Position numbers and translations under genes: made by a program. From Candidatus Nomurabacteria bacterium GW2011_GWE1_32_28 (GTDB lineage Bacteria; Patescibacteriota; Minisyncoccia; Phycocordibacterales; UBA9973): a stretch of 59,259 nt of DNA. The notes beneath the pieces are model-generated. The model ran no database searches. It saw nothing but the letters and a program-made list of their open reading frames with translations, and was not told where the DNA came from. The stretch spans positions 1 to 59,259 of the forward strand of contig LBOM01000001.1 in the NCBI GenBank assembly GCA_000989515.1. The letters are read 5' to 3'. This document shows, piece after piece, positions 5,772-53,574 of this stretch; position 1 is the first letter of the stretch, and each line of letters opens with the position of its first letter.

Positions 5772-5844
5772 GCCACCCTAGCTCAGTTGGTAGAGCACGT
5801 CTTTCGTAAAGACGGGGTCCCGAGTTCGATCCTCGGGGGTGGCT
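5772..5844 (+). tRNA. tRNA-Thr (anticodon CGT)
   Basis: Acceptor gccaccc/gggtggc, anticodon arm cgtct-ttCGTaa-agacg, T arm ccgag-ttcgatc-ctcgg. No encoded CCA. Confidence 0.9.
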
Positions 5845-5845
5845 C

Positions 5846-6727
5846 ATGGAAAAAGAAAACATAGAAAAAGAAATAAAAGAATTAGAAGCTCAAACACAAG
5901 ATATATCTTTTTGGAGTGATAAAAATAAAGCACAAGAAATTTTGAAAGAGATTTCAGAATTAAAAGATAAACTTGTTGGTGCAAAAAAATATGACAAAGG
6001 TAATGCGATCATTACCATAGTGTCTGGTGCTGGTGGTGATGATGCTGAAGATTTTTCTTCGATGCTTTTAAATATGTATATGAAATATGCTAGCAAGAAT
6101 GGATGGGAAATATTTTTTATTCACGAACACAAAAATGATCATGGTGGTTATAGGAATGTTTCTTTCGAAGTAAAAGGTAAAAATGCTTATGGAATGCTAA
6201 AGAATGAATCTGGTGTGCATCGCTTAGTACGCATTTCTCCATTTAATTCCAAAAAGTTGAGACATACCTCTTTTTCTCTCATAGAAGTGTTGCCAAAATT
6301 TTCAAAATTAGAAGAAAAAGATTTTAATATTTCACTCGCAGATATAAAGATAGAATATAGTCGTTCTGGTGGGCCTGGTGGACAAAATGTAAATAAGAGA
6401 GAGACAGCAGTTCGTTTAGTACATATACCTACCAATATTTCATCTCATTCATCAGAAGAAAGATCTCAAGAACAAAACAAAGAAAGAGCAATGGCTATTC
6501 TTTTGGCAAAAATATTTAAAAAAGCAGAAGAAGAACAGAAAAGCATAGAGGAAATTTATAACAAAAATTATGGTACTGACATAGAGTGGGGAAGTCAGAT
6601 ACGTTCTTATGTATTGCATCCATATAAAATGGTAAAAGATCATCGTACAGAAGCGGAGACTTCAAGAGTAGATGAGATTTTAGATGGCGACATAGACTTA
6701 TTTATTGAGGCAGAAAAAAATCTATAA
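5846..6727 (+). CDS. prfB: peptide chain release factor 2, short form without frameshift site
   Basis: SPF motif (VRISPFNS), GGQ motif (SGGPGGQNVNK), and WGSQIRSYVLHPY. 293 aa. Confidence 0.9.
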   Translation: MEKENIEKEIKELEAQTQDISFWSDKNKAQEILKEISELKDKLVGAKKYDKGNAIITIVSGAGGDDAEDFSSMLLNMYMKYASKNGWEIFFIHEHKNDHGGYRNVSFEVKGKNAYGMLKNESGVHRLVRISPFNSKKLRHTSFSLIEVLPKFSKLEEKDFNISLADIKIEYSRSGGPGGQNVNKRETAVRLVHIPTNISSHSSEERSQEQNKERAMAILLAKIFKKAEEEQKSIEEIYNKNYGTDIEWGSQIRSYVLHPYKMVKDHRTEAETSRVDEILDGDIDLFIEAEKNL

Positions 6728-6835: not shown

Positions 6836-7333
6836 ATGAAAAATACTTTTGCGGCTGTTATATTGAAAGAATTTTTACAGCCTAGATTTAGATATAAAGG
6901 TATGCCTGTTAATTTACTAGGATTCCCTGTTTTAGATAATAAAAAATTTAATAGAGTTAAATTATCAAAACAAATTTATCGTTTGAAACAAAAAGAATTT
7001 ATTAAAAAAGAAGGTCATTTTTTACATGTAACCTTGAAGGGTAAAGAATATGTAAAAAGAAAACAAGAAAGCCTTTCTTTGTTTGAATCTAAAAATTTTA
7101 AATCAGAAAAAAAAGATCTTATTGTTATGTTTGATATTCCTGAAAGTAAAAAAGCAGAAAGAGAATGGTTTCGTTTTCATTTAAAAAAATTTGGATATTT
7201 AATGATACAGAGAAGTGTCTGGGTTGGACCTTCTCCACTTCCTGGTGATTTTTTAGATTATTTAAAAGAGATAAAACTTAAGATCTGTGTAAAAACTTTT
7301 AAATTAGCAAAGTCATATAAAGACAAAGATTAG
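6836..7333 (+). CDS. PaaX-like regulator: winged-helix N-terminus plus Cas2-fold domain
   Basis: The C-terminal half LIVMFDIPESKKAEREWFRFHLKKFGYLMIQRSVWVGP matches the Cas2/PaaX-central-domain pattern (xxYDIpe..R..f...L...G...Q.SVW). The N-terminal half looks like a wHTH. Confidence 0.55.
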   Translation: MKNTFAAVILKEFLQPRFRYKGMPVNLLGFPVLDNKKFNRVKLSKQIYRLKQKEFIKKEGHFLHVTLKGKEYVKRKQESLSLFESKNFKSEKKDLIVMFDIPESKKAEREWFRFHLKKFGYLMIQRSVWVGPSPLPGDFLDYLKEIKLKICVKTFKLAKSYKDKD

Positions 7334-7424: not shown

Positions 7425-7640
7425 TTAATAATTTGCTCGAAATATAAGTAGCAATATTATTATTATTAAAAAAAGAGCCCTTGATGAATAGATAATACCA
7501 AGTTTGTCTTTTTTTAATATTGCTATAAATAAAGTAATTGATCCACTTATTAAACATATAGATGAAATTCGAAATAATTCAGTACCCAAAGCCACAAATA
7601 GTGCTAATATTATTGTTATATAAGGGTTTAATTTTTTCAA
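7425..7640 (-). CDS. small two-TM membrane protein (TTG start)
   Basis: Hydrophobic 71-aa ORF. GAGGTGA lies 4 nt upstream of the TTG start. Confidence 0.4.
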   Translation of the reverse strand: MKKLNPYITIILALFVALGTELFRISSICLISGSITLFIAILKKDKLGIIYSSRALFLIIIILLLIFRANY

Positions 7641-16670: not shown

Positions 16671-17240
16671 TTATTTCTTTAAAATATAGTTTAATATAGG
16701 GTCTAATCCTTTTTTTGTTTTTGAAGAACAAGGGAAGACAAGATATTCTCCTGCAAATTTTTTGGTTTCAACTAATCTATGATGAAAATCTGATTGATTT
16801 ATTTTGTCTATTTTATTGAGTATGATGATAAAGTCTTTTTCATGTTTTTCTAATTCTTCAAATACTTCGATATCTTGTTCAGTCATACCCGTTTTTGCAT
16901 CTATTATTAATAGAATTTTTTTCTGATTAAAATTAGGGTTGAATATGTATTCTGTGATTAAGTTACCGATTTTTTCTTTTCCAATTCCTGAAACACGAGT
17001 AAATCCATATCCTGGTAGATCTACAAAATAAATAGATTTGTTAATTAGAAATATATTTATTTCTTGAGTACTACCCGGAAAAGCACTTTTTCGAGAGATG
17101 CTACTATGAGTCAATCCATTTATTAAACTTGATTTTCCAACATTGGAACGACCAAGAAAAGCAATTTGTGGAATACCATCAGTAAAAACTTTATCTTCTC
17201 CTATGACTCCTTTTATAAATTTAGCTGATATTATTTTCAT
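16671..17240 (-). CDS. engB: ribosome-biogenesis GTPase EngB/YsxC
   Basis: GRSNVGKSSLIN (G1), DLPGYGF (G3), NKIDK (G4). Confidence 0.9.
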   Translation of the reverse strand: MKIISAKFIKGVIGEDKVFTDGIPQIAFLGRSNVGKSSLINGLTHSSISRKSAFPGSTQEINIFLINKSIYFVDLPGYGFTRVSGIGKEKIGNLITEYIFNPNFNQKKILLIIDAKTGMTEQDIEVFEELEKHEKDFIIILNKIDKINQSDFHHRLVETKKFAGEYLVFPCSSKTKKGLDPILNYILKK

Positions 17241-17348: not shown

Positions 17349-17509
17349 TTACAATAGAAGAATAGTATAAAAATGCTCTTTTATCAATGATTTCTACTAT
17401 TATATATAGAAAAATTTTGTGAAATTATTATTTGTATAATTTAAATTATTATGATATAATATTTTTATATAATAGTACATTAAAATAGTCAATAAAAAAG
17501 GAGGAAAAA

Positions 17510-18607
17510 ATGGAAAAAGTATTTCGAGTTTTTGAAAAGTCATATGATGGAGTTTTCATTAGTGATTATTCCGGAAAAGTAATTTTTCTAAATGATTCAT
17601 TAGAAAAGATTATTGGCTTTAAAAAAGAAGAAATTCTGGGTAAGAATTTAAAAAACTTAGAAGAATTGTTGTTTTCTAAAGAAAACATTTCTGAATATTT
17701 GAAAGATTTTAATTTAGAATCTTTGTGGACATCAGATGTTTTTAAAAAATTTGTTACCAATCTTGAGGGAAGACTTCAGGAATTTTCAATTAGAAGAGAA
17801 GATTGTTCAATAGTTTTTGTTGAACAAATTTTTTTTATTTTTGAGGATGATGATACTTTTTTTGTTATATCTATAATAAGAGATATAACTGAGTGTAAAA
17901 AATTAAGAGAAGACTTTTTAAATTTTCAGAGGACATTTAGTCATGATGTCAGGAGTCCTTTATCATCATTAATAAGTATTTCTTCTTTTCTTTTAGAAGA
18001 GCTAGAAAATAAAGATTTTTCTTTAGAAGATACCAAAGAATTTGTTTTAACTCTCAATAAGATTGGTAGAAAAATGCTCCATATGATGGAGGATTATTTA
18101 CTACTAGAGGCTCTTGAAAATGGTAAGCAGATAGAAAAAGCGCCGAAAGTTATATCTGAACTTCTTGGAGAATTAAAAAGTATTTTTTCTAATTTCAAAA
18201 GTAAAAAAAAGATACAGATCTTATTCAAGAAACATGAAATTGAGAATTCTAATTTTGACCTTCTTCAAAAGAAGGTTATGATAAATGAAAATTTATTTTC
18301 ATCTGTTCTTAATAATCTGATCGGAAATGCTATTGAAGCTGATCAAGAAATTGATAATAAAATAATAATAAATATTTATGAAGAAAGTAGATATTTATTT
18401 TTATCATTTTCTAATCCTGGTGAGATTCCAGAGGAAATCAGGAGTAAGCTTTTCCAGAAGTTTACTTCTGGAAAGAAAAATGGAACGGGAATTGGTCTTT
18501 TTTCTTCAATGCTCATAATTAAAGCTCATCTTGGAGATTTATATTATGAGCCCCTTGAGGGAGTAACCAGGTTTACAATCAAGATTCCAATGTTTCCAAT
18601 GTTTTAA
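17510..18607 (+). CDS. cytoplasmic PAS-domain sensor histidine kinase
   Basis: PAS-like N-terminus, H-box FSHDVRSPL, ATPase motifs NLIGNAIEA and GTGIGL. GGAGG lies 7 nt upstream of the ATG. Confidence 0.8.
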   Translation: MEKVFRVFEKSYDGVFISDYSGKVIFLNDSLEKIIGFKKEEILGKNLKNLEELLFSKENISEYLKDFNLESLWTSDVFKKFVTNLEGRLQEFSIRREDCSIVFVEQIFFIFEDDDTFFVISIIRDITECKKLREDFLNFQRTFSHDVRSPLSSLISISSFLLEELENKDFSLEDTKEFVLTLNKIGRKMLHMMEDYLLLEALENGKQIEKAPKVISELLGELKSIFSNFKSKKKIQILFKKHEIENSNFDLLQKKVMINENLFSSVLNNLIGNAIEADQEIDNKIIINIYEESRYLFLSFSNPGEIPEEIRSKLFQKFTSGKKNGTGIGLFSSMLIIKAHLGDLYYEPLEGVTRFTIKIPMFPMF

Positions 18608-33368: not shown

Positions 33369-35297
33369 TTAAATACTTAATATTACAGGTATAACTAATG
33401 GTCTTTTTGCAGTTTTTTGAAATAAGAATTTTGAAACAGTTTCACCAATATTAGATTTTATGTGATCTAGGTCAATTTCATTATTTTTTATAGCTATGTC
33501 ATCTACTCCTTTTTTGATTATAATTCGTACCTGTCGTAAAAGTTCTTGATTTTCTTTAAGATATACAAACCCACGTGATATTAGATCTGGTGATTTTTTT
33601 AATTTACGAGTCTTAAGATCTATTAATGCTATTATTACAAACATTCCATCTTGCGCAAGCATTTGTCTATCTCTGATAACTACATCTTGTACATCACTGA
33701 TTGCAAGTCCGTCTACCATCATTGGAGCAGATGGTGCTTTTTCTTTTCGTAAAATAATTTTTTCTCCATCATTAGATATTTCAATAATAGAACCATTGTC
33801 TGGTACTACTATTCTTTCTTCTGACATTCCTGCCTCTATCGCTAGTTCTTTGTGGAGCTCTAACATGAAATGATTGCCATGAATTGGAATAAAAAATTTT
33901 GGATGTACTTTTTTATGAAGCCATCTTATATCTTCTTTGTTTCCATGTCCTGTAGCATGAATGAAGTCTTCTCCAGCTGTTCGATAACTTATTATTTTGA
34001 CACCTTGTCGTGAAAGATTATCTTTAATACGTTGAACTTTTATTTCATTTCCAGGAACCACAGAAGATGAAAGTATAATAGTGTCTCCTTTTTTGATTGA
34101 AAATTTAGTGTGAGATTTGTTTGCAGCACGCGAAAGTGCTGCAAATTCTTCACCTTGAGATCCTGTCATAAGTATTACAACCTTGTTAGGAGGATATTTA
34201 TCAGCATCTTCAATAGGTATCAATGTATCTTTTTTGGGCTTAAAGTATCCAGCTTCTATTGCTACATCTATATTTGTTTTCATAGAACGTCCATCAATAG
34301 CTATTTTTTTCCCTAAATTCTCAGCCACTTTTACAACATGAGTTAGTCGAGTGATGTGTGATGCAAAAGCAGCAATTATTATACGTCCATTTACCTTTTT
34401 TATTAAATTTTCTAACCCTTGATGTACTTTTATTTCAGGCAATGAAAAACCCTCATTTTCTATGTTTGTAGAATCTGTCATCAATAAAAGAACTTTTGCT
34501 TTATCAAAAATAGAATATTCTTTTTCTTCTTGGTCTGATACTATTCCATCTACTTGGTCTAGCTTATAATCTCCAGGGGTAACTATCCAACCATTTTTAG
34601 TTTCTATTATTACACCCATTGAATCTGGAATAGTGTGTGTTACTCCAAAAAATCTAACTTTTATTTTTCCACATGTTACTACTTCATCTTTTTCCACCAC
34701 GTGTTCTTTTATTGCTGCAAATTGTGGGAATTCAGCTTGCCTTTTTTTCATTAGAAGCATAGAAAGATTACGAGAATATACTGGAGGATTGCCTATACGT
34801 GAAAGTACAAGTGGTACTCCTCCTATGTGATCTAAATGTCCATGAGTTATAAAAAGCCCTCGTATTTTGTCTTTATGCTCTTCTAAATATGTCGTATTTG
34901 GTATAACATAATCAACTCCTGGTGTATCTTCATTGGAAAAATGCATACCTGCATCTACTAAGATAATATCTTCTCCTATTTCTATCGCCGTCATATTTTT
35001 CCCTATTTCTTCAACACCACCTAGTGGTATAATACGAACTACTCCTTCTAACGGAGAAGGAATTTTATTTTCACTTATATTTTTATATTTATTTTTATTA
35101 TCGAATGGACGATTTCCATTTCTAGATGGTCTATAATTTTTTTTAGTATACTGATAAGTAGAACTTTTTATAAGTTTTTTTCTTTCAGGATTTTTATTTT
35201 GAGTTTCTGTTTTTTGTAATAGGGGATTACTTATTGTTTTATTTTCTTTCTTTTCTTCGATGCTGATAGCACTAAAAGATAGTCTAGTTTTTTTCAT
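33369..35297 (-). CDS. rnj: ribonuclease J with Lys/Asn-rich N-terminal extension
   Basis: Metallo-beta-lactamase THGHLDHIGG, beta-CASP region, HATGHG. About 75 extra basic residues at the N-terminus. Confidence 0.9.
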   Translation of the reverse strand: MKKTRLSFSAISIEEKKENKTISNPLLQKTETQNKNPERKKLIKSSTYQYTKKNYRPSRNGNRPFDNKNKYKNISENKIPSPLEGVVRIIPLGGVEEIGKNMTAIEIGEDIILVDAGMHFSNEDTPGVDYVIPNTTYLEEHKDKIRGLFITHGHLDHIGGVPLVLSRIGNPPVYSRNLSMLLMKKRQAEFPQFAAIKEHVVEKDEVVTCGKIKVRFFGVTHTIPDSMGVIIETKNGWIVTPGDYKLDQVDGIVSDQEEKEYSIFDKAKVLLLMTDSTNIENEGFSLPEIKVHQGLENLIKKVNGRIIIAAFASHITRLTHVVKVAENLGKKIAIDGRSMKTNIDVAIEAGYFKPKKDTLIPIEDADKYPPNKVVILMTGSQGEEFAALSRAANKSHTKFSIKKGDTIILSSSVVPGNEIKVQRIKDNLSRQGVKIISYRTAGEDFIHATGHGNKEDIRWLHKKVHPKFFIPIHGNHFMLELHKELAIEAGMSEERIVVPDNGSIIEISNDGEKIILRKEKAPSAPMMVDGLAISDVQDVVIRDRQMLAQDGMFVIIALIDLKTRKLKKSPDLISRGFVYLKENQELLRQVRIIIKKGVDDIAIKNNEIDLDHIKSNIGETVSKFLFQKTAKRPLVIPVILSI

Positions 35298-38754: not shown

Positions 38755-39750
38755 ATGAAAAAAGAAACTACAATGTTGGGTTTATTTCAAACATTATTCC
38801 ATAATTTTAATGCTCGTGCCTTTAAGGATGCGACTTTGGCTTTCAAGAAACATTTAGATGATGGGGGAAAGATGCTTGTAGCTATGGGGGGGGCTATGTC
38901 GTCTGCTCAGATCGGTATAACGCTTGCACCCATGATAAAAGAGGGAAAAATACATGCAATATCATGTACTGGTGCAAACTTAGAAGAATCTGTCTTTAGA
39001 CTTGTTGCTCATAATAGTTATAAAGATTATCCTGATTATAGATATTTTACTAAAGAAGATGATGAAAAGATTTTAAATAAAGGAGAGCGAAGAGTTACGG
39101 ATACATCTATTCCAGAGGAGGAAGCTTTTAGAGTAGTAGAACCAATAATTTTAAAAAGATGGAAAGAAGCGGAAAAAAACGGTGAGCGTTTTTTTCCGCA
39201 CGAATATTTTTATCAGATTTTATTGTCAGATGAATTAAAAGATAAATATGAAGGTAATCCTGAGCACTGTTGGCTTCTTGAAGCTGCAAAGAAGAATCTA
39301 CCTATTGTTGTTCCTGGTTGGGAAGATTCTACATTAGGAAATATTTTTGCTGGTTATTGTAAAGCAGGAGAGGTGAGCCCTACTGTCATGAAGACTGGTG
39401 TGGAATATATGATGTATCTTTATGATAAATACACAGAGCTTTCGGAAGGAGGTCCTGGTCTTGGATTTTATCAAATAGGTGGAGGTATCTCTGGAGATTT
39501 CCCTATATGTGTAGTGCCTTCTATTAAATATGATTTGAAAAAAGAAGTAAGACCTTGGGGATATTTCTGTCAGATTTCAGACTCTACTACTTCTTATGGT
39601 TCATATTCAGGAGCTACCCCAAATGAAAAAATAACTTGGGATAAACTTACAAAGCATACTCCTATGTTTGTTATTGAATCAGATGCGACTATCGTCGTGC
39701 CTTTGATGTTTGAAGCTATTTTAGATAGATATGTTTTAAGTGGAAAATAG
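38755..39750 (+). CDS. deoxyhypusine synthase-like protein
   Basis: GGAMSSAQIG, ISCTGANLEES, YQIGGGISGDFP, DSTTSYGSYSGATPNEKITWDK. Confidence 0.7.
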   Translation: MKKETTMLGLFQTLFHNFNARAFKDATLAFKKHLDDGGKMLVAMGGAMSSAQIGITLAPMIKEGKIHAISCTGANLEESVFRLVAHNSYKDYPDYRYFTKEDDEKILNKGERRVTDTSIPEEEAFRVVEPIILKRWKEAEKNGERFFPHEYFYQILLSDELKDKYEGNPEHCWLLEAAKKNLPIVVPGWEDSTLGNIFAGYCKAGEVSPTVMKTGVEYMMYLYDKYTELSEGGPGLGFYQIGGGISGDFPICVVPSIKYDLKKEVRPWGYFCQISDSTTSYGSYSGATPNEKITWDKLTKHTPMFVIESDATIVVPLMFEAILDRYVLSGK

Positions 39751-40322: not shown

Positions 40323-40351
40323 TTGACACTAGACGTTGCTTCATATATACT
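40323..40351 (+). promoter_or_regulatory. near-consensus sigma-70 promoter of the 16S rRNA unit
   Basis: TTGACA, 17 nt, TATACT. Confidence 0.55.
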
Positions 40352-40539: not shown

Positions 40540-40564
40540 GCTGTTTTTTGTTTTGTTTCGTTCT
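40540..40564 (+). other. 5' strand of the rRNA processing stem
   Basis: gctgttttttgttttgtttcgttct is complementary (two mismatches) to 42390..42414. Confidence 0.7.
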
Positions 40565-40590
40565 AAACTCCGACTTCGGTCGGAGAAACT

Positions 40591-42183
<1,593 letters not shown>

Positions 42184-42389
42184 TGAAAATCGTCCTAATT
42201 CTTCTTTGGAGAATTACAGATCCCACCAAAAGTGGGATCTAGATCAAGGTTTGATCGGACTTATTGAGTCGGTATTGTGTCGCTCAATTGACGACACAAT
42301 GCTTGATCATGACAAGCTAAAAAAATGAAGTTTAAGATAACTTAAAAATCTAAGACAATTTGGAAAGACAAATAAATAAAAAAGTTTAA

Positions 42390-42414
42390 AGAACGAAACA
42401 AAACATAGAACAGC
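42390..42414 (+). other. 3' strand of the rRNA processing stem
   Basis: agaacgaaacaaaacatagaacagc pairs with 40540..40564. Confidence 0.7.
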
Positions 42415-42421
42415 AAATTTT

Positions 42422-42451
42422 AAAAACACCTCGCGCAAGCGGGGTGTTTTT
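42422..42451 (+). terminator. intrinsic terminator closing the 16S transcription unit
   Basis: aaaaacacctcgc-gcaa-gcggggtgttttt. Confidence 0.8.
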
Positions 42452-42465
42452 GGTATAATTTTTAT

Positions 42466-43386
42466 ATGATAGAAAAGAAAGAAAGAAACAAAATACGAGT
42501 TGGAGTATTGAGAGGTGGCATAAGTAAAGATTATAGATCTTCTTTACTCAAGGGTGGAGATATTATTTCTAATATTTTTGAAAATTTATCTGAAAAATAT
42601 AAGGTAGTTGATATTTTGGTTGATAAAGATGACGTTTGGCATCTAAATGGATTGCCAATAAAGCCTAGTGACTTAATGTATAAAATAGATGTTGTTTGGA
42701 ATACATCACATTCAAATTATTCTAAGATTCTTAAAGATTTATCTATTCCAAATATTGGAGTTGGTCATTTCTTAAAAATTCTCGAAAGTAAAGAAATCTT
42801 AGAAAATCACGTAAAAAATATTGAAGTTAAAATTCCTAGATCTATAGTTTTTTCCACGTATCAAAAAGATTTTGATGGACCAATAGAAAAATATGCTATT
42901 AAAAAAGCAAAAGAAGTTATGAATAAATTTCCTGCACCTTGGATAGTAAAATCTTTTACATTGGATTCTAATACGAGCATACATTTGGCTAAAACTTTTG
43001 GGGAATTAGTAGATGTTGTAAAAGATGGAGTTGCTCACGATAAAAGTATTTTAGTAGAAGAATTTATTTTAGGTAAAGTTTCTTCTGTTCATTCTATTTC
43101 TGGTTTTCGTGGTGAAGATATATATGTTCTTCCTCCTATTAATTTTTCAGTTAGTGAAAAAGATAAAATAATTTCTTTAGCTAAAAATTTACATATTCAT
43201 TTAGGAGTGAAATATTACTTAAAATCTGATTTTATTTTACATCCTAAGTTGGGATTTTTCTTAACAAACATTGATTTTTCTCCTGATTTTAGAGTCGATT
43301 CTCATCTTAAACAATCTTGTGATTATGTTGGTGCTGAAATGCATCATATCTTGGATTATTTTTTAGAAAAAGCTTTAAAAATTTAA
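42466..43386 (+). CDS. ddl: D-alanine--D-alanine ligase family ATP-grasp enzyme
   Basis: IRVGVLRGGISKDYRSSLLKG N-terminus and ATP-grasp core (WIVKS, ILVEEFI). Lies near the mur genes. Confidence 0.75.
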   Translation: MIEKKERNKIRVGVLRGGISKDYRSSLLKGGDIISNIFENLSEKYKVVDILVDKDDVWHLNGLPIKPSDLMYKIDVVWNTSHSNYSKILKDLSIPNIGVGHFLKILESKEILENHVKNIEVKIPRSIVFSTYQKDFDGPIEKYAIKKAKEVMNKFPAPWIVKSFTLDSNTSIHLAKTFGELVDVVKDGVAHDKSILVEEFILGKVSSVHSISGFRGEDIYVLPPINFSVSEKDKIISLAKNLHIHLGVKYYLKSDFILHPKLGFFLTNIDFSPDFRVDSHLKQSCDYVGAEMHHILDYFLEKALKI

Positions 43387-52439: not shown

Positions 52440-53525
52440 TTATTCTAAATGAATTAAAGTCATTTTATGTTCTTTTGGTTCAAATAGTGTAATTTGGAAA
52501 TTATAGTTCTTTCCAAGTTCTAATTTTTCACGAAGCTTTGTTTCTGTTCCAAAAGTAGAATTGTGGACAAGTCCAGCTACTCCTTCTTTTATTGAAACCA
52601 ATGCTCCATGTTTATTGTATTTTATAACAACACCTTTGATGATATCTCCTTTTTTTAATTTTTCTTCAAATTCTGTCCAAGGATTTTCTTTTAATGCTTT
52701 GATTGAAAGTGAAATTTTTCCATCTTTTTTCTCTATAACCTTAGCCTTAACAGTGTCTCCAACCTTAAATATTGTACGAGGATCTTCGACAAGACCCCAA
52801 TCAAGTTCTGATATGTGAACAAGGCCCTCTAGTCCATCTTCTAGTTTTAAGAATACTCCGAAATCAACAAGTCCTGCAACAGTACATTCTAATTCATCAC
52901 CTATATTGTATTTACTTAAAATTTCCTTTTTTTCTTCAGGGTTATTGTCTTTTTCAGAAAAGATTAATTTACCCTCTTTTGGAAGTGTCGAAATAATCAT
53001 TACTGAAATTTTTTCACCTACTAATTTCTTTAGCTCTTTTAATATTTTATCTTTATCAGAATCTAAAACATGTGGATAATGTTCAGATTTTAATTGAGAA
53101 GCAGGTAAAAATCCTTGTATACCTTGCCATTCTAGAATTAATCCTCCTTTGTTTGCATCTTTTATTTCTAATTCTAAGATAGTCTTTGCTTTTATTGCTT
53201 TTTCAGCATCATTCCAAGTAAGTGCTTGTTTTGCTTCTTTAAGAGAAAGCTCAGTGTATCCATTTTCATTTTCTTTTTCAACGACCTTAGTTTTGATAGT
53301 ATCACCAATCCTTATTTTTTTTATTATATCTTTAGCATTAATGAATTCACGTCCATATATGATACCTGTTCCAAATGGTGACAAATCTACAAAAACTGAT
53401 GATTTTTCTACTAAAATAACCTTACCTTCTATTAGAGAATCAGCTTCAGGTCTTGAAAGACTTCTATCAACTATAGATTTTAATACTAAATTTTCTTGTA
53501 TTACTTCTTCTTTTTCTTTATTCAT
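52440..53525 (-). CDS. rpsA: 30S ribosomal protein S1 (four S1 domains)
   Basis: Repeated S1-domain blocks (G.V..V....VFVDL, GLVHISEL, GVVIKYNKHGALVSI). I moved the start to MNKEKEEV. Confidence 0.85.
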   Translation of the reverse strand: MNKEKEEVIQENLVLKSIVDRSLSRPEADSLIEGKVILVEKSSVFVDLSPFGTGIIYGREFINAKDIIKKIRIGDTIKTKVVEKENENGYTELSLKEAKQALTWNDAEKAIKAKTILELEIKDANKGGLILEWQGIQGFLPASQLKSEHYPHVLDSDKDKILKELKKLVGEKISVMIISTLPKEGKLIFSEKDNNPEEKKEILSKYNIGDELECTVAGLVDFGVFLKLEDGLEGLVHISELDWGLVEDPRTIFKVGDTVKAKVIEKKDGKISLSIKALKENPWTEFEEKLKKGDIIKGVVIKYNKHGALVSIKEGVAGLVHNSTFGTETKLREKLELGKNYNFQITLFEPKEHKMTLIHLE

Positions 53526-53574
53526 GATAATAATTAATTTAAACAAAAACATCCGCAATAAAGCGGACATAAGA

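Follow-up and report, generated by a model that had tools for sequence, protein, structure and literature searches.

Absence of the anti-Shine-Dalgarno core from the 16S rRNA of a Nomurabacteria genome, and a possible hairpin in its place

According to the textbooks, bacteria select their start sites by pairing between a Shine-Dalgarno (SD) motif ahead of a gene and the anti-SD sequence CCUCC in the tail of the 16S ribosomal RNA (rRNA). The present report is concerned with a 16S rRNA gene (rrs) whose tail does not carry this sequence. The gene lies within a stretch of 59,259 nucleotides (nt) from Candidatus Nomurabacteria bacterium GW2011_GWE1_32_28 (LBOM01000001.1, positions 1 to 59,259), to which we refer throughout as the window, and it raises three related questions: whether the anti-SD has truly been lost, whether the genes of this organism use any SD-led initiation, and what has become of the positions at which the anti-SD would be expected. 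For the reasons set out below, we regard it as nearly certain that the 16S tail is without an anti-SD and that the genes do not use SD motifs, and we answer the third question with more reserve.

The 3' end of the 16S rRNA

The gene and the two elements at its 3' end that bear on the first question are the following:

40591..42183, + strand, 16S rRNA gene (Rfam RF00177, 1312.5 bits, model positions 1-1533)
42147..42170, + strand, helix 45 (h45), a 10-bp stem with a GGAA loop (Rfam alignment)
42171..42183, + strand, 13-nt tail GAAUAAUUCAAUU instead of GAUCACCUCCUUU (Rfam alignment and exact CCTCC search)

Alignment of the gene to the covariance model RF00177, a check that the first-pass annotation of this DNA had proposed, covers the whole model with the 3' minor domain (h44, h45) intact, the gathering score for the family being 50. 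In the 3' part of this alignment h45 reads CACGGCUAGC-GGAA-GCUGGUCGUG, with AAGUCGUAACAAGG directly before it, just where and in the form that the first-pass annotation had given. In 88 distinct relatives none of its 10 pairs is lost, and 2 of them covary. The terminus of the model, GGAUCACCUCCUUu, aligns without gaps to GGAAUAAUUCAAUU (42170-42183), and because the tail alignment is gapless the CCUCC positions correspond to AUUCA. The consensus tail of bacterial small-subunit rRNA, GAUCACCUCCUUu, is typical of RF00177 but not required for membership; the window has GAAUAAUUCAAUU in its stead.

The earlier claim that no CCTCC lies between h45 and the processing stem of the transcript is supported by an exact search, which found none on the + strand from 41830 to 43132, an interval that takes in the complete trailer with its strand of the processing stem, as well as the terminator (listed below). 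This rules out an anti-SD that has been displaced by an insertion in the trailer, and an anti-SD hidden behind an intervening sequence was rejected on the same grounds, there being no + strand CCTCC from h45 to beyond the terminator. Two further candidates were tried and rejected as anti-SD sequences: ACACCUCG at 42427, which sits in the terminator stem and outside the processing stem, and UCCU at 42193, for which there is no matching enrichment of AGGA (2/55 genes).

Identical h45 and tail sequences occur in five independent assemblies (GCA_000989365.1, GCA_003542535.1, GCA_003511065.1 and two metagenome assemblies from ENA) that share an identical downstream gene, the protein of the gene at 42466-43386 matching residue for residue, and an assembly error is thereby excluded. 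The same observation bears on the wider suspicion that the gene might be a pseudogene or an artefact, or that a second rrs with a canonical anti-SD might reside elsewhere in the genome, which we consider very improbable. The suspicion could draw on the intervening sequence within the 16S and on the 2-8% by which the 16S differs among assemblies with an identical neighbouring protein. It could also draw on the fact that only part of the genome is in view: the Rfam search found a single 16S, a count that holds for these 59 kb and to that extent weighs against our interpretation. Opposed to it are the full-length, high-scoring Rfam match with intact h44 and h45, the recurrence of the tail in five assemblies, the promoter-like site, processing stem and terminator that surround the gene, and the occurrence of the same state in hundreds of related lineages, together with missing SD motifs. 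Genomes of the candidate phyla radiation (CPR) usually carry one rRNA operon (rrn) copy.

The elements of the transcription unit outside the 3' tail are these:

40323..40351, + strand, promoter-like TTGACA-17-TATACT upstream of the rrs leader (11/12 consensus positions; putative, consensus match only)
40540..40593, + strand, 5' leader strand of the pre-16S processing stem (40540-40564 and 40586-40593; leader/trailer co-fold)
41706..41824, + strand, AT-rich intervening sequence within the 16S with an internal inverted repeat (the alignments of relatives break there and the segment matches itself in reverse)
42380..42414, + strand, 3' trailer strand of the processing stem (leader/trailer co-fold)
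42420..42453, + strand, intrinsic-terminator-like hairpin and T run at the end of the rrs unit (sequence inspection)

The processing stem described in the first-pass annotation is real in that the leader and trailer co-fold with a predicted 32 intermolecular pairs (40540-40564 and 40586-40593 with 42380-42414), a small hairpin, CUCCGAC-UUCG-GUCGGAG, being enclosed within the leader strand. Since an Rfam search of the window found no 23S downstream of the 16S, the gene is a monocistronic unit, which consists of a promoter, a leader of ~230 nt, the 16S, a trailer of ~240 nt and a terminator. The inverted repeat of the intervening sequence contains repeated AATTACGA / TCGTAATT units, and relatives are without the sequence or have a different one. 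At the equivalent of window position ~42052, breaks in BLAST alignments mark 16S insertions of ~0.4-1.2 kb in several relatives (L079, L049, L075, L034, L106, L053 and L061).

Translation starts in the window and in its relatives

Gene starts were taken to be the first start codon of the longest open reading frame (ORF). For the 55 ORFs of the window, pairing of the -20..-1 region to the canonical tail at a free energy (dG) of -3.45 or lower is seen in 11%, as compared with 33% far upstream, 40% in coding regions and 13% in shuffled sequences, and GGAGG precedes 1 of the 55. The scarcity of GGAGG ahead of start codons that had been remarked on earlier is thus borne out. The free-energy comparison, which the first-pass annotation had proposed, gave no SD signal in the window, and a search for the SD core gave none in the relatives: among 609 ORFs located beside 16S genes without an anti-SD, an SD core is present at -20..-4 in 11-13%, against 9-16% in control windows. 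With the same script a Bacillus locus, used as a positive control, yields 62% vs 5%. Because there is no SD enrichment in the window or its relatives while the script readily detects SD motifs in Bacillus, we conclude that SD-led initiation is absent. Relatives with a canonical tail were too few for a comparison of SD usage between lineages, only two having been recovered, with one usable ORF. The two SD-like motifs that had been pointed out in the window do exist and are the only ones ahead of ORFs there, namely AAAGGAGGAAAAA-ATG (17494-17512), of the GGAGG type, ahead of a PAS-domain histidine kinase (17510-18607), and GAGGTGA-ACC-TTG ahead of a hydrophobic ORF of 71 amino acids (7425-7640, - strand), and both are compatible with chance.

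The start regions of the window have a composition of their own. The G content at -12..-1 is 0-10%, vs 17% in the window overall, with a preference for A at -2 and at -4 to -6 and for U at -1, and the start regions of operon-internal genes are A/U-rich and G-poor. In ten genes of the window a TATAAT-like box stands exactly 6 nt from the A of the ATG, each other spacing being represented by 0-3 cases, which bears out the leaderless type of promoter geometry noted earlier. In the group A relatives, box spacings of 6, 7, 8 and 9 nt account for 29, 18, 15 and 11 boxes, vs a background of ~4. The exact spacing of 6 nt is predicted to place the start of transcription on the start codon. An example is found directly after the rrs terminator:

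42453..42468, + strand, TATAAT box (42453-42458), 6 nt, and the ATG (42466) of a D-Ala-D-Ala-ligase-like gene that spans 42466-43386

It might be supposed that a new SD:anti-SD pair has co-evolved in this lineage, with an mRNA motif complementary to GAAUAAUUCAAUU, and chance complements to such a tail are to be expected in an A/T-rich genome. No signal in support of the idea was found among the window genes: pairing of their -20..-1 regions to the actual tail, taken as 13 or 19 nt, shows no excess over the far-upstream, coding and shuffled controls. Many genes are predicted from their box spacing to have no 5' untranslated region at all. Among the 128 taxa without an anti-SD surveyed by Amin et al. 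(2018, PMC6107228), which include no CPR, a compensating SD was present in none. We therefore give this possibility almost no credence; no replacement pairing has evolved.

How might the genes be translated, then? We propose that operon-first genes would be expressed from leaderless mRNAs, the -10 box ending 6 nt ahead of the AUG, and that initiation at operon-internal genes would take place in G-poor, A/U-rich and presumably unstructured regions, depending on weak structure and probably with help from bS1. By analogy with what is known of bS1, the following protein of the window is a candidate for such help where A/U-rich start regions are used without an SD:

52440..53570, - strand, bS1-like protein with four S1 domains (four stretches matched by Pfam S1, E = 4e-39)

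We found no paper on leaderless translation in CPR in our search of the literature. There are parallels in other bacteria and in archaea. The Bacteroidetes share with the window organism genes without SD motifs and A-rich, G-poor start regions. They reportedly keep the CCUCC, sequestered by ribosomal proteins, and are said to use an A-rich, Kozak-like context; in the window organism, by contrast, the sequence itself is gone and leaderless geometry is frequent. Mycobacterium, Deinococcus and archaea, which are rich in leaderless mRNAs, resemble it in having a -10 element that puts the start of transcription at the A of the AUG, but they retain the anti-SD and use SD motifs on leadered genes, whereas here the SD route appears to be absent.

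One gene start deserves separate mention. The longest ORF of a peptide-chain release factor gene (5846-6727, + strand; PCRF and RF-1 domains) begins one base after tRNA-Thr (5772-5845), and its PCRF profile is matched from position 86 only, which indicates either a short N-terminus or a start set in the wrong place.

The hairpin at the former anti-SD position

The third question is what the tail has become. The element concerned is the following:

42177..42187, + strand, mini-hairpin UUCA(42177-42180)-AUU-UGAA(42184-42187) (covariation in relatives)

The 5' strand of this mini-hairpin occupies the former anti-SD position, and the 3' strand lies just past the end of the Rfam model. Among the relatives the tail has the consensus GA[AU][UC]AAUUCAAUUUGAAA, with positions 1-17 far more conserved than the next 13 and conservation fading after ~18 nt, and positions 7-17 after h45 are able to pair as a hairpin (3-5 bp, loop of 3-5 nt). 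The sequence of the stem varies in ways that keep its complementarity. In addition to the UUCA/UGAA of the window, UUCC/GGAA, CUCA/UGAG, GUCA/UGAC, UUUC/GAAA, UCCU/AGGA and GAUCAC-UUCC-AUGU-GGAA are found, and variant stems occur on several h45 backgrounds.

For a measure of covariation we aligned a set of metagenomic 16S ends, picked by the h45 signature of the clade alone and blind to the tail (at least 120 matches), to a covariance model that describes h45 and the hairpin together, and restricted the count of pairs to the hairpin. By this count 90.5% of cells are paired, vs 75.8 +/- 1.2 in shuffles, 4 of the 4 pairs have changes on both sides, and the number of compensatory cells is 42, vs 8.2 +/- 2.4 in shuffles (0/500). 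The covariation score is 0.386; shuffled sequences reach 0.167 and slid partners no more than 0.143. When no alignment is used, a permutation test gives 69/117, vs 40.1 +/- 3.6, with 0/2000 permutations as high.

These results have to be weighed against the simpler view that the tail degenerated after selection on it was relaxed, and that common descent, A/T sequence of low complexity and the fitting of the alignment to the model have together produced the semblance of a hairpin. The dominant UUCA/UGAA stem is A/U-rich and unstable, palindromes of A and T alone arise easily at 29% GC, and the failure of some covariation measures among related sequences, to which we return below, might be expected if this view were correct. 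It does not sit well with the far greater conservation of positions 1-17, with the G-C-containing variants that keep complementarity on different h45 backgrounds (UUCC/GGAA, CUCA/UGAG, GUCA/UGAC, UCCU/AGGA, UUUC/GAAA), or with the significant permutation test and the low scores of the slid controls. We find the degenerate tail a doubtful explanation. As judged from the comparison of sequences, the replacement tail is conserved and not degenerate filler, and the hairpin is probably a selected structure.

A possible meaning for such a structure is suggested by the rrn operons of Firmicutes, which read ...GGAUCACCUCCUUUCUAAGGA and fold as UCCUU-UCU-AAGGA (-3.1 kcal/mol) at the same offset from h45, the sequence GGATCACCTCCTTTCTAAGGA being 100% identical in Bacillus, Priestia, Staphylococcus, Streptococcus and Clostridioides. 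Baumgardt et al. (2018, NAR 46:8605, PMC6144821) noted the same fold-back in B. subtilis, where the YqfG/YbeY processing site lies between the loop and AAGGA; in their account the pairing is without experimental evidence, and pairing with the SD of an mRNA is proposed to open the hairpin. The B. subtilis fold-back (PMC6144821) and the hairpin of the window are alike in that the 5' strand is in the tail 7-12 nt after h45, the loop is of 3 nt and the 3' strand follows immediately downstream. They differ in that the 5' strand in B. subtilis is a functional anti-SD, whereas the UUCA of the window is not and no SD is used, and in that the stem of the window clade has a different sequence, which covaries. 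The two relatives in the sample that have a canonical tail also carry an SD-like partner in cis, UCCU...GGGA in L165 and CUCC...GGAG in L238. No ybeY gene was found within the window.

From these similarities we propose that the fold-back might be an ancestral signal for maturation of the pre-16S 3' end, whose 5' strand doubled as the anti-SD. Once SD-led initiation had been given up, the 5' strand would have been freed from the CCUCC sequence and could change while pairing was kept, perhaps by compensatory drift in the order UCCU/AGGA -> UUCC/GGAA -> UUCA/UGAA. If B. subtilis is taken as a guide, the mature 16S 3' end would then be near 42183/42184. We give a role of the hairpin in 16S 3' maturation somewhat less than an even chance when it is considered by itself. 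The explanation as a whole, in which the anti-SD was lost, initiation is free of SD motifs and the fold-back is a maturation signal that has drifted, appears to us to be quite likely.

Several points weigh against this explanation. Two of the five covariation measures (pairs changed on both sides, further pair types) are no higher than in shuffles, and the counts come from related sequences in an alignment fitted to the model. The mini-hairpin of the window has, when folded alone, a minimum free energy (MFE) of 0 kcal/mol, and the MFE fold of the complete trailer does not contain it, so that the support for it is comparative and not thermodynamic. About 1/3 of the Parcubacteria-type tails are without such a hairpin (group B: GAUCAAUUAAACU and GAUCAUUUWUUU), which means that a lineage without the anti-SD does not always need the fold-back. 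E. coli is without the fold-back (Baumgardt 2018, PMC6144821), and its ancestry is therefore not universal; the scenario of an ancestral SD-like partner in cis draws on only two canonical-tail relatives. The gene starts, finally, were assigned by the longest-ORF rule.

The group B tails have features of their own. They keep GAUCA and have AUUAA or UUUAU in place of CCUCC, and those with GAUCAAUUAAACU mostly carry an h45 of the form CACGCGUAGC. Members of the group include L008, L026, L030, L050, L073, L136, L159, L164, L172 and L173, of which L073 is Minisyncoccus archaeiphilus PMX.108.

The hairpin might have a different fate from the one proposed, and stay on the mature 16S rRNA, perhaps together with the structured trailer, as a cis substitute for the SD:anti-SD helix or as a 3' expansion segment. 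The UUCA at the old anti-SD site, with UGAA as a built-in "SD", would in that case permanently fill the pocket for the SD helix on the platform of the 30S subunit, possibly with more of the trailer. The covarying stem has its 5' strand exactly at the former anti-SD positions and further conserved structures follow in the trailer, both of which would suit a retained element, as would a tail that ends after the hairpin, at 17-19 nt. This is not longer than the annotated tail of B. subtilis. In favour, too, is the unusual conservation in Parcubacteria of h26, which contacts the SD helix (Tsurumaki et al. 2022, RNA 28:1041, PMC9297842). But the equivalent 3' strand in B. subtilis, AAGGA, is the start of the extension that is removed (PMC6144821), the stem has only 3-5 bp and no predicted stability in the window version, the group B lineages do without it, and conserved structure in rRNA spacers is common for reasons of processing and assembly. 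We consider a retained hairpin, and the filling of the pocket by it, unlikely.

Beyond the mini-hairpin, the trailer contains the following elements:

42196..42216, + strand, trailer hairpin 2, UAAUUCUUC-UUU-GGAGAAUUA (folding)
42218..42256, + strand, two further trailer hairpins, GAUCCCACC...GGUGGGAUC and GAUCAA-GGU-UUGAUC (trailer MFE fold, window only)
42268..42301, + strand, conserved element of GUCGGU and then a bulged hairpin with apex C-UC-AAUU-GA (motif count and RNAalifold)

In 51 of 83 relatives a stable hairpin, variable in sequence, begins at tail position 21-22, with a mean MFE of -12.4 kcal/mol vs -7.7 kcal/mol in shuffles. It comes 3-5 A-rich nt after the mini-hairpin, often with CGU (tail positions 21-65, L126-L245). 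The motif GUCGRY, represented in the window at 42268-42273, is present in 156/218 relatives vs 10% expected, and in 38 relatives as well as the window (hairpin at 42273-42301) there comes after it a bulged hairpin whose apex, CAAUUG, is invariant (C-UC-AAUU-GA-G). In 25 of the bulged-hairpin sequences, that of the window included, RNAalifold finds 12 pairs, 9 of them with compensatory changes. Relatives with the GUCGRY element include L016, L037, L055, L056, L087, L125 and L130. No Rfam family matches the element at 42268-42301, and an Rfam search of the trailer in E-value mode returned only weak matches to small-RNA families over the terminator hairpin. Judged by conservation and folding, the pre-16S 3' trailer is a conserved, structured region, for which we would expect a role in processing or assembly.

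The loss within the Parcubacteria and its implications

The 16S of the window is, outside its own population, best matched (78-92% identity) by metagenome-assembled genomes (MAGs) labelled Minisyncoccia, Zambryskibacteria, Taylorbacteria, Nomurabacteria or Paceibacterota, and the h45 signature CACGGCUAGC...GCUGGUCGUG is shared with Parcubacterial relatives. From these 16S matches, the h45 signature, the intervening sequence and a GC content of ~29%, the source of the DNA is placed by sequence as a Parcubacteria-group member of the CPR (Patescibacteria).

How common the loss is among such organisms can be gauged from two scans, with the reservation, which also weighs against our interpretation, that proportions among the matches listed come from samples of unknown composition. 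In the sample drawn by h45 signature, CCUCC is absent from 118/120 metagenomic 16S ends among the matches listed. A census that took one genome for each GTDB species and looked for a non-C at tail positions 6, 7 and 10 of the 16S returned at least 120 matches; those listed are nearly all from Parcubacteria-type lineages, including the cultured Minisyncoccus archaeiphilus PMX.108, with a few from endosymbionts or from Flavobacteriaceae or Rickettsiales MAGs. Outside the CPR, the census cases without CCUCC at the usual place are the endosymbiont Shikimatogenerans, two MAGs of Flavobacteriaceae, one MAG each of Rickettsiales, alphaproteobacterial and Bacillota affiliation, and a contig that bears the label Zoogloea; in a Thorarchaeota 16S the CCUCC comes 35 nt later, an arrangement that points to an insertion following h45 (the labels, Thorarchaeota included, are L062, L029, L103, L121, L021, L077, L081 and L045).

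The first-pass annotation had called loss of the anti-SD rare in bacteria. The statement holds for bacteria overall (Amin 2018, PMC6107228) but fails within this clade, where loss is the rule (Tsurumaki 2022, PMC9297842). Of the Parcubacteria examined by Tsurumaki et al., only 48% had a detected CCTCCT, and the conclusion drawn was that the subgroup without it forms no SD helices; in their data the absence of the anti-SD overlaps with loss of uL1, though not as a strict rule (PMC9297842). No ribosomal-protein operon was found in the window. The loss that we describe is thus real, yet already published at the level of the clade, the window gene being one more member of the same clade with CCTCCT missing at the 16S 3' end. 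The treatment by Tsurumaki et al. (PMC9297842) covers the presence or absence of the motif and its link to uL1 only. The replacement sequence, the fold-back hairpin, the trailer elements, the SD usage upstream of genes and the leaderless geometry described here go beyond it. The trailer elements and the clade-wide leaderless geometry were not found in the literature searched and may be additions to the known loss; the covarying hairpin in place of the anti-SD, also not found there, may be new.

Other taxa without an anti-SD offer a comparison of a different kind. Those described by Lim et al. (2012) and Amin et al. (2018, PMC6107228), which include Blattabacterium, Chryseobacterium, some Mycoplasma and Carsonella, resemble the window organism in having a 13-nt tail without CCUCCU, no SD enrichment and no compensating motif; they differ in being Bacteroidetes, Tenericutes and insect endosymbionts, from a survey that was without CPR. 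The tails of Shikimatogenerans (L062) and of the two Flavobacteriaceae (L029, L103) have neither the Parcubacterial consensus nor the hairpin.

Some other genes of the window may be recorded here. An RNase J (33369-35297, - strand) and an EngB/YsxC-like ribosome-biogenesis GTPase (16671-17240, - strand) are encoded in it, RNase J being one of the few ribonucleases reported to be kept across the CPR (PMC12641178). Just upstream of the rrs unit is a gene for a protein of the deoxyhypusine synthase family (38755-39750, + strand; PF01916, E = 2e-33), and the product of the gene at 6836-7333 (+ strand) is small and has a PaaX central / Cas2-like domain; no connection of either gene with the 16S finding is obvious.

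The existence of a large and environmentally widespread radiation without the rRNA half of the SD:anti-SD interaction shows that the mechanism is dispensable. To this the window adds one well-documented example, along with evidence that, across the clade, genes lack SD motifs and commonly have leaderless promoter geometry. There is a practical consequence in that gene callers and expression designs that assume a ribosome-binding site will mis-set starts in these genomes. What is possibly new is that the former anti-SD position is still constrained as a strand of a covarying hairpin, one that matches the processing-site hairpin proposed for B. subtilis. If this is confirmed, lineages without the anti-SD would provide comparative evidence for a part of the fold-back in maturation of the 30S subunit that is independent of translation initiation; and if the hairpin should turn out to be retained on the mature 16S rRNA, it would represent an adaptation at the level of the ribosome to translation that is leaderless only or free of SD motifs. 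For the loss itself, Minisyncoccus archaeiphilus, which is cultured, is without CCUCC and belongs to group B without the hairpin, would offer an experimental system.

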